Assembly: GCA_026025795.1 (NCBI GenBank)
Contig: JAPEUG010000003.1
Coordinates: 62,001-126,000 of the forward strand
Reading direction: 5' to 3'
DNA from: Thelocarpon superellum
Lineage: Eukaryota
Length of the DNA stretch: 64,000 nt
Shown: positions 25,053-29,233 of the stretch, in pieces
Layout of the letters: each line of letters opens with the position of its first letter
Numbering within the stretch: the stretch's first letter is position 1
The notes under the pieces: model-generated
What the model was told of the DNA's origin: nothing
The model's input: the letters and a program-made list of their open reading frames with translations, nothing else
The model's database searches: none
Position numbers and translations under genes: made by a program

Positions 25053-26253
25053 GGTGCTCCAGCTCCCGACGGGGATCGCGTCACCACTCCAGTTGCCCGT
25101 GGCCGCGACCGTGACCAGCGCACCCCACCGACACGCCAGTGGACCATGGGCCGCGTCGTGAGGACATGAAAGGAAAAGAGACGAGAGGGAGAGGAAGAGG
25201 AAGAGACCCGCCGTTTAGGGTCGAGGCAGGCGGCCCGGCGAGGGCATGGCTCGACCGGGTTCGCGGTCAGGTCCAATCGAGTTAGCGCACCATCCGGGCT
25301 GCCGTCACGCTTTCCCTTTCCTCTCTGTCCGTGCCGGTGCCAGCACCCCAGCCACTGAACCGATAACGCCCGCCGCCAAGCCGGCCCCCGTCAAGGGCGC
25401 CGTGGGTCGCGCGGCGCTCAGGAACACAACGGCGGGTGCCGGACTCCGGCATGGCGGATGACTGGTGTGGGATGGGCCCCAGTGCCAGCGATCAACTTGT
25501 TGTGTGGGCGACTCATTGGTTCACCGCGATGACCAAGTGTCCCCGGGTCTTCCGAGTCGGCTAGCATCTACGCCTCGCCACCACACTCGACAAGTTTGGT
25601 ACTTGGTAGAAGTAAGGACGGCGTACGAGTGGTTATCGCCAAGCTCGTTCCTGATCGGAACCTTACAGCGCACGGGATACGAGGTCCATTTGCCGGGCAT
25701 TCCTGTATACCTGTCTCGGCTATGTTTCGTTACGGCTCGGCCTTCAGCTTAAGTTTCATAAATGAAGTTCTCCTTGTCGCCACCGTACAGGAAATGCCCC
25801 GATAGCTAGGCGTTCAAGGCGAGATTTATTCGACAGAGTCATGGTCCGTCTGTCAAAGGGTATCAGTCTTCCGACTTCGTTGGCAGAGTGACGTCGTTTG
25901 ACATGAGGGCCACTATTGATTGGAACAGTTTGCGAGTGGAAAGTGATATTCTCCAAAATACCCAGAACCAATATTTTATTCGAAAGGGCAGTTCAAGATA
26001 TCGTTGTCTCAAGCTTTCTGACGGATGGCAATCTCTACACGGCTGTTCAAGGTGAAATGTACTCCACGATGTATAGCAAAAGTAAAGCCGTGCCGTGCCA
26101 CCCACGTTGGTCAGAGATCTGGTGTTGGTCCACTTTACGTGATGTTGGGCGCGCGAGCGCTTACAGCGCTAAAAATTGCACCGACCTGAACCCGATCGTC
26201 TGCAGCATCGCGAAGTCGATCCATCCAACCGTCAACCACATCATGCTGCCACG

Positions 26254-26877
26254 ATGATCCAACTCAAGGTAACCATCCGCGGCCTGGATCGAGAATGCAG
26301 AGCTGATGCGAAGCACTACCTCAGACGATGCTTAATTGCATCGACAATTCTGGCGCCGCCATGGTCGAATGCGTGCAGGTGCTGAAGATGAAGCGACACG
26401 CCCGCATAGGTACGAGAGCCGACTCGATCGTGAAATGAACGCCTCCTGACGAGGAGATCATGGCAGGCGATCGCATCGTAGTGGTGGTGCAGAAGCAGCG
26501 GAGTTTCGGCCCCGAGAGCAGTCCGGGCGGCGGCGGTGGAGGCGGTGGAGCCATCGCGGCCGCGAATAAAGTGCGACGGGGAGATATCCGACACGCGGTC
26601 GTGGTGCGGACGGCCAAGAAATATCAGCGGCCGGATGGGAGCGTGGTCCGCTTCGACGATAACGCGTGCGTGCTGGTCAATAAGGCGGGTGAGCCGATCG
26701 GGACCCGGTTGAATGGTAAGTCATGTTGTCCCGACGTGAGTGCGTCTACGTGCCATCGAGGGCGTGAGAGTGAGAGCGGACCGCGGCTGATACAAGAGGG
26801 TCATAGGGATCGTGGGGATCGAGTTACGAGAGAAGAAGTGGTCGAAGATTCTGTCATTGGCGCCGATGCATCTATGA
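26254..26877 (+). CDS. MRPL38: Mitochondrial ribosomal protein uL14m, 4 exons
   Basis: [102 protein letters not shown] 26875-26877. Confidence 0.93.
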
Positions 26878-26978
26878 GGGCTGGAGAACCTAGGCGCCAG
26901 TGCGCCCTTATGCTCTCGCTGCTCCAGTTCCGTTGTGTATTCCTCCCAAACGCCATCCCGTGCAAATATGATCGAACA

Positions 26979-27700
26979 CTAGGAGAAGACCGTCCCACAC
27001 GCGCAACAGACGTAGAAGAGTTTCTGTGGGCCCCATGGTCAGACGGAGGGGGAGCAGGAGGAGGGGTAGAAGGGCCACCTACCATGCCGGTATTGGCAGA
27101 TCGCTGCTGCGACTGGAAGAAGACCGCCTCGGTTTCGGAGCAATGGGGGCATTGCCGGTTGGACCGGGGCAGCTAGAGGTCAGACGACCATGTCAGCACG
27201 GTTCGGAAGGATCTGATGAAGCATCACTTCTCGCACGCGCCATCATCATCCGTCTCCTCGGGCGGCGAATCTGTGCTCTCGCATGTGTCACAAGACTCCC
27301 CGTATCCACTATCGCTCGCCAGCTCATTCTCCGCCAAGACGGTTCCGCGGTGCCCGCAGTGGGCCATCCACCCGCCGCAAAAGTCACACGCGATCATCTG
27401 GCCACAGAGCGTACAGAAGCCGGGCGGACTAACCGTGGGGTCGGAAGCGACGTCTTGCGTCACGCCCTCGGTCTCGCCGACCGTGTTGGAGAGGATGTTG
27501 CGAAAGACACAGGCCGACGCGGCCGGCTCACTGAACTGGCAGGTGCGACAGGCGAACATCAAGGTTGCCGTCTGGGGGTCTTCCTTGGGGTAGAGCATGT
27601 TGGAGCATTCTTTGCAGAACTGAAAGGTGATGTTGGTGATCTGTTTCCGCACCTCGGGCGGGGGCCCATCGGTCGTCGAAGCTGCATCGGGGGTGGACAT
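26979..27700 (-). CDS. RPB9: RNA polymerase II subunit Rpb9; exons 27700-27434, 27172-27083, 27023-26979 (133 aa)
   Basis: [22 protein letters not shown] (Zn ribbon 1), [47 protein letters not shown] (Zn ribbon 2); GT-AG boundaries with CTGAC branch points. Confidence 0.96.
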
Positions 27701-28347
27701 GTTGGCTCGGAACGCGAGGACGAGGGAGTTTAAAGACGTGGGATGACAGGTGGAAGGTGGAGGTGAGAGGCTGCGCCTTGTCGTGTGGATGTGTGTTGGT
27801 CGCTTCGGGTGGCGGGTGTCGCTGCTTGTCCCTGGAGGAAGAAAAGCCAGAGAGACACAGCAGCGGTCGGGTTCTTATGGGAGAACAGGAGCCGGGAGCT
27901 GGGAGGTGCCCACGAGAGCAGCTGCACTTAACCACGCGATCCGCGGTGAAAGAGGGAACGAGTGAATGCACAATTTAGCCACCCAAGACCATACCGGTGA
28001 GTGCCGTCAATTGGTGACTAATACTCGTAGCGCGAGCGAAGAGATGGTGGGGCGAATTTGTCGTCTTAGCGCGGTCCGTAGTAGAGTCACCCGTGTTGGC
28101 GCTGTCGCCTTACCGGTAGCATCGTAGACAGCGGAAAGCGGGACCACGGCCGTCCCCGCGCTGCCCGCTGCGGTGTCGGCCGCTCGTTCCTGCGTCTGCT
28201 CAATGCCCCCCATCCCCGCCACGCTCGGCCGGCCCTCATCTGCCCCGAACCATACACGCATACCACTCGCCCGACATCGGTCGACACGTGGAGTCACCGG
28301 TTGCTTGCTCATTGAATAGATCCTAGATCCTAGTGGGATTAGGTAGG

Positions 28348-29233
28348 ATGGTAAGTCTTGTTCATGGAATGCCTTCGTCATCCCATCTGCCCTACCCGGC
28401 CTGGCTGCCACTTCCATCGCGGTTAGTACCCCAACTCAGACACCATACTGATGCCTCGCCCACCACCCGCACAGACGGATACTGGTCTCCCTCCCAACTG
28501 GGAGGTGCGGCATTCCAATTCCAAGAACCTGCCCTACTACTTCAACGCCGCCAGCAAAGAGTCACGATGGGAGCCGCCAGCATCGACTGATACGGACAAG
28601 CTCAAGGCCTACATGGCGCAGCACCACAGCGCATCCGCCTTACGTACCGAGACGGCGGGACAGAATGAGGGCAAGATCCGTGCCGCCCATCTACTGGTCA
28701 AGCATCGCGACAGTCGACGGCCCGGCAGTTGGCGAGAAGTACTCCGCCCCGCCCTGACGTGGACGGTGCAGTCACGAGCTGACGGGCGCCTGCTGGCGAC
28801 GCTCTAGGCCGAGATCACGCGGAGCAAGGAAGAAGCGCTAGAGATTATTGCAGCCCACGAGAAGCGCATCCGAGCAGGCGAGGCCAGTCTCGGCGACCTG
28901 GCCGTGACCGAGTCGGACTGCAGCAGCGCGAGAAAGCGAGGGGATCTGTGAGCTCGACCCTCGTCTATTTTGTGATGCCAGGCGACGAACAGCTAACAGT
29001 CGCTTACGATAGTGGGTTCTTCGGCCGAGGCGAGATGCAGAAGGAATTCGAAGAGGCTGCCTTTGCTCTCAAACCAGGCGAGGTCAGCTCCGTGGTCGAG
29101 ACCGCATCGGGCGTGCATCTGATCGAAAGGTGAGCACATGCCACTACGTTCCCTCCCAATGGACTTTCTTCCCTTTCCCTACTCGATGCGCAACTGAACT
29201 GATGATCACCGTGATCTTGCCAGACTTGAATGA
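28348..29233 (+). CDS. ESS1: Parvulin peptidyl-prolyl isomerase Ess1/Pin1 (WW + rotamase), 5 exons
   Basis: ATG|gtaagt one-codon exon, then [30 protein letters not shown] (WW), [67 protein letters not shown] stop. Confidence 0.96.

Follow-up and report, generated by a model that had tools for sequence, protein, structure and literature searches.

Organization of the RPB9 locus

The window analysed here is a stretch of 64,000 nucleotides from Thelocarpon superellum (contig JAPEUG010000003.1, positions 62,001 to 126,000), whose minus strand carries RPB9, the gene for a subunit of RNA polymerase II, divided into three coding exons. The coding part of exon 1 (27434..27700, minus strand, as are all features of the gene given below) contains 89 codons starting at the ATG at 27700, encodes the N-terminal zinc ribbon and the linker, and ends in GAC CCC ACG (DPT) directly before the donor of intron 1, GTTAGT (27433-27428). 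Intron 1 (27173..27433) is 261 nt long, lies in phase 0 and ends with a TAG acceptor at 27175-27173. Exon 2 (27083..27172, 30 codons) encodes the first half of the TFIIS-type C-terminal ribbon, and exon 3 (26979..27023, 14 codons followed by TAG) its second knuckle, with the second CxxC; between them lies intron 2 (27024..27082), which is 59 nt long and has the donor GTAGGT. The canonical spliced Rpb9 thus encoded has 133 aa. Its identity is supported by a match of residues 26-61 to PF02150, the N-terminal RNA polymerase M/15 kDa zinc ribbon (E 8.2e-11, 42 bits vs a cut-off of 25.2), and by a match of exon 2 alone to PF01096 (E 2.8e-8, 33.9 bits vs a cut-off of 21), while exon 1 shares 82% identity with the Thelocarpon Rpb9 model and 95% with P0059.

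When translation is continued from exon 1 through the donor, the frame remains open for 69 further codons (27227..27433), up to a TGA stop (27224..27226) that lies 51 nt before the acceptor. The resulting read-through protein of 158 aa lacks exon 2 and, by construction, the PF01096 C-terminal ribbon, having in its place an alternative C-terminus with eight Cys, which are arranged as CxxC-x5-CxxC at tail residues 7-19 and then as one more CxxC. The conserved core of this tail, C-x2-C-G-x4-C-x2-C, spans 27377..27415, at an offset of 18 nt from the donor, and the tail ends in an acidic stretch (after the motif, D+E 26% and K+R 4%). A branch-point-like GCTGAC, identified by consensus match only, is found at 27192..27197, 3' of the ORF stop. 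These features had been pointed out in an earlier note, made from the sequence of the window alone, and the minus strand bears them out: the 261-nt intron with its GTTAGT donor, GCTGAC and TAG acceptor is there, the 69 extra codons with a stop at 27226-27224 give residues identical to those quoted, the eight Cys, their spacing and the acidic tail are each present in the translated extension, and the switch point falls at the DPT|LPR linker, as exon 1 closes on DPT.

Just 3' of RPB9, a convergent neighbour on the plus strand (26439-26720) codes for a ribosomal protein L14 of bacterial type (PF00238, E 1.9e-23), which is probably the mitochondrial uL14. A Gly-rich stretch stands ahead of its domain, and its coding part stops at a GTAAGT-like site near 26720.

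Chance expectation within the window

As a null model for the open frame we used 5000 dinucleotide-preserving shuffles of intron 1. An ORF of at least 69 codons was obtained in 285 of the 5000 shuffles (5.7%), and open runs of 66, 70, 85 and 87 codons occur in four of the intron's other five frames as well. Because of both results, the open frame alone is unremarkable in DNA of 60% GC and constitutes weak evidence without comparison. At least eight Cys occurred in 7 of the 5000 shuffles, and the CxxCGx4CxxC motif in none. GC content at the third, first and second codon positions of the ORF was 0.72, 0.58 and 0.57, respectively, which is exon-like.

Related sequences and distribution of the extension

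Searches restricted to the tail recovered no orthologues: a word-based search with residues 90-158 had a single match, the window's own ORF, and HMMER, run with the 69-aa tail on 1.84 billion representatives, gave just an unrelated repeat protein rich in Cys and Gly (P0123, E 3e-6). Orthologous tails surfaced only with exon 1 as the query and through a search at the DNA level. The exon 1 search identified 241 Rpb9 proteins, 120 of them listed, and among these 120 there are 60 spliced models (DPT|LPR), 50 that read through the donor and 10 with other joins or without the linker. The sequence C-x-x-C-G follows shortly 3' of the donor in 37 of the 50 read-through models among the 120 listed matches, in agreement with the remark in the earlier note that some database models of Rpb9 end in CxxC tails. 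It is missing from the 13 others, two of which differ by a single Cys-to-Tyr or Cys-to-Trp change of the Leotiomycete motif. P0055, in which the C..CG match sits only in the canonical ribbon, was not counted as a tail carrier.

According to the lineages looked up, carriers of the extension comprise Thelocarpon (Thelocarpales), Candelaria and Candelina (Candelariomycetes), Sclerophora (Coniocybomycetes), Rhynchosporium and other Helotiales (Leotiomycetes), and Cephalotrichum (Sordariomycetes). Pleopsidium, Circinaria, Lobaria and Pseudocyphellaria, which we take to be Lecanoromycetes, carry it as well.

Genomic loci were collected by scanning metagenome contigs with alignment A1 (tblastn matches), and the best 80 of 234 relatives were taken, a sample that leaves out Eurotiomycetes, Dothideomycetes and early-diverging Pezizomycotina (Pezizomycetes, Orbiliomycetes). 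Intron 1 is held at the same phase-0 position by 77 of these best 80 loci; the remaining three (L019, L064 and L065) have neither intron and are transcript-like contigs of the spliced form. Exon 1 is 100% (L016) and 97.7% (L005) identical to Fusarium, 95% identical to Metarhizium (L022) and 77-84% identical to Neurospora in nine loci, and many other loci have an exon 1 that is 90-100% identical to Helotiales or Lecanoromycetes. In the Metarhizium-like L022, intron 1 measures 543 nt and the extension 152 codons. The contig of L022, which stops within exon 2, shares a name prefix with that of L019; it might be an RNA-derived contig with a retained intron. In many of the Lecanoromycete and Helotiales loci, both the tblastn match and the open frame start only at residue 33-35 and leave out what lies upstream of MLYPKED, which suggests an extra intron within the coding part of the N-terminal ribbon, one that is missing from the window's gene.

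A single locus among the 65 unique ones, L072, has an intron 1 without the motif. This is a Helotiales-like RPB9, with an exon 1 that is 93% identical to Claussenomyces, and its intron 1 measures 89 nt, with a read-through that still starts VRLP; to judge by its sequence, the lineage looks like one that shortened intron 1 and lost the extension. Considering L072 together with the 13 of 50 listed read-through models mentioned above, the motif is not universal, having been lost or having degenerated in some lineages.

The extension evolves as coding sequence

The pattern TGY-N6-TGY-GG was searched in the three frames of 65 unique introns, drawn from the 77 intron-bearing loci and the window. It was found in 64 of the 65, a proportion that overstates its prevalence because the 80 loci were ranked by a query including the tail and are therefore biased towards tail bearers, and its first occurrence was always in frame 0 relative to exon 1. 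The offset of the motif from the donor varies between 15 and 192 nt and takes 17 distinct values, each of them a multiple of 3. No stop stands ahead of the motif, even in loci where it lies beyond the end of the tblastn match by which they were selected.

The variability of the aligned codons has the same periodicity. In 63 unique motif-anchored sequences, the codons of the invariant Cys, Cys and Gly show third-position entropies of 0.97, 0.82 and 1.83 bits, and mean entropy at codon positions 1, 2 and 3 is 1.32, 1.20 and 1.71, respectively. In the pairs with the greatest divergence, tails were saturated or could not be aligned, and selection was assessed instead on 13 independent alignable pairs with 72-98% intron identity. 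In these 13 pairs, substitution rates at positions 1, 2 and 3 were 0.079, 0.084 and 0.160 within the ORF (chi-square p 3e-6) and 0.156, 0.181 and 0.141 in the sequence 3' of the stop (p 0.55). Likewise, 9 of 12 indels within the ORF were multiples of three nucleotides, vs 3 of 19 in the sequence 3' of the stop. The dN/dS ratio was 0.26 in frame (bootstrap CI 0.19-0.33), vs 1.16 and 1.08 when the frame was shifted; in exon 1 it was 0.05, so that the extension is less constrained than the exon from which it continues.

Orthologous copies of intron 1 range from 89 to 830 nt, with a median of 226 nt (159-830 nt in carriers), and those of intron 2 from 47 to 129 nt. The ORF occupies a median of 70% of intron 1, and the distance from its stop to the acceptor has a median of 72 nt in the orthologues.

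Conservation of the frame and of the Cys in orthologous introns and a dN/dS below one were what the earlier note had asked to see, and all three were found, the Cys conservation within the limits given below for the third and fourth Cys. These comparisons establish, at the level of sequence, that the extension has been kept in frame and has been evolving as coding sequence across the sampled leotiomyceta lineages.

Anatomy of the alternative C-terminus

The core C-x2-C-G-x4-C-x2-C is often followed by Gly and has a hydrophobic residue and usually a Pro ahead of it. The Cys4 motif that the earlier note had proposed is conserved only in part: the first CxxC-G occurs in all 63 of the anchored sequences, as the anchor itself demands, and the third Cys is found in 53 of the 63 unique sequences, but the fourth is found in only 36 of 63, Leotiomycetes having three Cys. 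Alignments A2 and A4 show no variation at the Cys, Cys and Gly and hardly any at Cys105.

The tails are acidic throughout (pooled D+E 27.4%, K+R 6.9%). Whole tails are 60-100% identical within Fusarium and Neocosmospora, and 3' of the motif they are unalignable between classes. Acidic stretches around Trp, of the type D-D-W-E-P or W-E-D-P-F...Y-D-E-E, were observed in tails of different classes (L011, L060, L062, L025, L016 and P0084), including those of Fusarium and other Sordariomycetes, and are found neither in the window's own tail nor in the short tails of Leotiomycetes. From their sequence, such stretches could be a short linear binding motif.

Comparison with known domains gave nothing above the cut-off for the tails in Pfam and nothing significant in sequence searches of the PDB with the tail (E 0.6-2.5). 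Alignment of A2 with A3 by hhalign extended only through DPT and a low-confidence gapped CxxC; with no credible homology in that comparison, an origin of the tail by duplication of the C-terminal ribbon was not supported. In AF2 models, which contain no ion, the window's protein (55 sequences) reached pLDDT values of about 90 in the N-terminal ribbon, 76-83 in the motif and 54-61 in the tail, and the Fusarium protein (46 sequences) only 57-58 in the motif and less than 60 in the tail. A plausible reading of these models is a small knuckle that would depend on metal, with a disordered acidic tail after it.

Database records and splicing signals

The read-through product is already on deposit for several species of Fusarium. 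A protein of 186 aa is recorded as RPB9 in F. verticillioides 7600, F. oxysporum, F. fujikuroi and F. proliferatum, and next to it, under an adjacent accession, F. verticillioides 7600 and a number of F. oxysporum records have a canonical product of 131 aa. In F. graminearum PH-1, the product on record for FGSG_06531 is the 179-aa read-through form. The corresponding intron 1 of Fusarium (L016, 1440-2017) measures 578 nt and holds an extension of 99 codons. The annotation pipelines behind these records presumably call isoforms from transcript evidence. A search for RNA sequencing runs covering 26950-27760 of the window turned up none, and the paired records of Fusarium are the only indirect sign of mature mRNA with the extension. 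Annotation alone is nevertheless no sign of function, because F. oxysporum also lists a 119-aa product of intron 2 retention (P0151), in which intron 2 is read through to a stop after two codons and there is no conserved extension. More generally, many deposited models of 113-186 aa named 'RPB9' or 'hypothetical protein' are the read-through isoform. In the literature searched, the scope of which ended short of supplements and subscription journals, no description of a read-through isoform of Rpb9 was found.

The donors of intron 1 are mostly GTTGGT (27) and GTGGGT (21), and 48 of the 60 unique sequences have G at +4, whereas the donors of intron 2 in the same genes have A at +4 in 43 of 56. 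As far as can be told from these sites, a systematically non-consensus donor of intron 1 fits incomplete splicing.

Alternative explanations

Different scenarios might explain the conservation of an open frame within intron 1. The earlier note's proposal of a second Rpb9 isoform, in which ribbon 1 is kept and ribbon 2 is exchanged for a Cys knuckle and an acidic tail, is supported by the sequence comparisons, and we hold it with good confidence that the best reading is a selected alternative C-terminus of Rpb9, made when intron 1 stays in. These fungi would thus probably make a second, shorter-ribbon form of Rpb9.

One alternative, which we regard as improbable, is regulated unproductive splicing, in which retention of intron 1 would only lower the amount of canonical Rpb9, e.g. 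via nonsense-mediated decay, and the encoded peptide would be a by-product. The weak donor of intron 1 agrees with it, and so does the position of the ORF stop upstream of a spliced intron. An mRNA that retains one intron and has a spliced intron downstream is a likely target of nonsense-mediated decay, which counts against a protein product; with the read-through stop lying upstream of the spliced intron 2, the retained-intron mRNA of RPB9 is a likely target of this kind. Moreover, a preprint reports that RPB9 dosage sets polymerase fidelity and that polymerase errors cause intron retention (bioRxiv 10.1101/026799), and a feedback loop through dosage, fidelity and retention is conceivable on that basis. 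A by-product, however, would not keep Cys-x2-Cys-Gly with free third positions, indels in multiples of three, an omega of 0.26 and acidity across classes. Unproductive splicing is compatible with a functional protein, but is insufficient alone to account for the data.

To a second alternative we give very little credence. If the ORF held another in-frame donor close to its end, splicing from there to exon 2 could produce an insertion isoform, with the knuckle and the acidic stretch placed between the linker and an intact C-terminal ribbon, and models of 209-232 aa from five Fusarium species (P0125-P0128, P0132) do hold both the tail and PF01096. The five models, however, join tail and C-terminus in five different ways, three of them without the first knuckle and one by translating the polypyrimidine tract, as expected of predictor artefacts, and they are probably mis-annotations. 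Each ORF closes at its own stop, and a consensus-like phase-0 donor is present in only 4 of the 60 unique ORFs, vs 7 and 7 in the other phases, on which count a conserved in-frame second donor was rejected.

The sense frame might also be incidental to an element acting at the RNA level (a splicing regulator, an intron-hosted snoRNA or another non-coding RNA) or to an antisense gene, to which the length of the intron, C/D-box-like words near the 3' end of the window's copy and the open antisense frames of the window's intron would lend themselves; we consider the chance of this slight in the extreme. Conservation follows the codon period, and spacers differ in length only by multiples of three nucleotides, against what an RNA element would lead one to expect. 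Within 26000-29000, Rfam searched up to E 10 yielded nothing relevant, its sole match being to a 21-position viral pseudoknot (E 9) at 26811-26836, outside the gene, and nothing in the window reached the gathering score. An antisense gene was rejected, as no more than 13, 23 and 9 of the 60 unique ORFs are free of stops in the respective antisense frames.

Least credible of all is a functionless chance frame in a GC-rich intron, which the 5.7% of shuffles reaching at least 69 codons and the four of five other frames open for at least 66 codons would allow, but which is refuted by the comparative data on frame, codon signature, substitutions and dN/dS and by a motif seen in 0 of 5000 shuffles. 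Neither a chance ORF nor an RNA element nor an antisense gene is compatible with the results on frame, codons, indels, dN/dS, antisense frames and Rfam taken jointly.

Proposed mechanism and function

Under the reading of a selected alternative C-terminus, intron 1 would be a dual-use sequence. Its removal would give canonical Rpb9 with N-terminal ribbon, linker and TFIIS-type C-terminal ribbon; if it were left in, or if the transcript ended inside it, translation would run on from exon 1. The resulting protein of 158 aa would consist of the N-terminal ribbon and the full linker to DPT, a Cys knuckle of 13 residues and an acidic, probably disordered tail. The weak donor (GT[T/G]GGT) may keep the splicing of intron 1 incomplete, so that both products are made, and the short product would dock on Pol II via the N-terminal ribbon and linker, the outcome being a polymerase devoid of the functions of the C-terminal ribbon and with an acidic tail at the jaw.

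Within yeast Rpb9, the first zinc ribbon (Zn1) and the linker serve in start-site selection and transcription-coupled repair, and the second ribbon (Zn2) in the contact with TFIIE, in UV-induced degradation of Rpb1 and in the coupling to TFIIS and fidelity. The short form would most likely sit at the Rpb9 site of Pol II without the functions of the C-terminal ribbon, adding an acidic tail at the jaw. That a form without this ribbon can be functional is indicated by a study in yeast, in which Rpb9 1-52 (Zn1 and linker) was enough to bring back autophagy and the transcription of ATG1, Zn2 not being needed (PMC9638876).

A more far-reaching scenario can be put forward only tentatively, and we consider it rather doubtful in its full extent. 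Filamentous ascomycetes would have two kinds of Pol II, differing in the C-terminus of Rpb9, with their ratio set by the weak donor. The short form would dock and drop the Zn2 functions, and its knuckle and acidic, aromatic-studded tail, located at the jaw and facing downstream DNA, would recruit a partner (a TFIIH PH-domain factor or histones) or sense redox state or metal, an arrangement that would go back to the common ancestor of the leotiomyceta lineages sampled and have been kept ever since. If this two-polymerase scenario were true, it would amount to a splicing-controlled switch of a core polymerase subunit.

Core subunits of Pol II are usually treated as single invariant products, and intron retention in fungi mostly as noise. 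Here, a core subunit gene has a second C-terminus, in frame and under selection, from Fusarium to lichen-forming fungi. Should the short form enter Pol II, the polymerase would be tuned by splicing, and the candidate properties are fidelity, the coupling to TFIIS and TFIIE, and repair-linked turnover of Rpb1.

Comparison with known systems

Compared with canonical Rpb9 (POLR2I; PF02150 and PF01096), the short form derives from the same gene and the same exon 1 and is identical in the N-terminal ribbon and the linker to DPT. The difference lies beyond this point, where the C-terminal ribbon of exons 2 and 3 is swapped for the 13-residue Cys knuckle and the acidic tail, the latter C-terminus having no Pfam match.

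The Pol I subunit A12.2 and the Pol III subunit C11 have the Rpb9-type N-terminal ribbon in common, and the part that follows is varied to alter the properties of the polymerase. These two subunits, however, are products of separate genes and have full TFIIS-type C-terminal ribbons, whereas RPB9 would here supply two C-termini from one gene by alternative processing.

Intron retention is the dominant form of alternative splicing in fungi, and retention of RPB9 intron 1 is formally the same event. While most fungal retention events are regarded as noise, the case of RPB9 stands apart through a frame-conserved ORF that is under purifying selection and common to several classes.

Yeast RPB9, to our knowledge, has no such intron. 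The nearest counterpart there is the engineered Rpb9 1-52, which lacks Zn2 like the natural short isoform and is functional for some of the roles of Rpb9 (PMC9638876). Rpb9 1-52 is artificial, whereas the natural isoform would add a conserved knuckle and an acidic tail to what the truncation retains.
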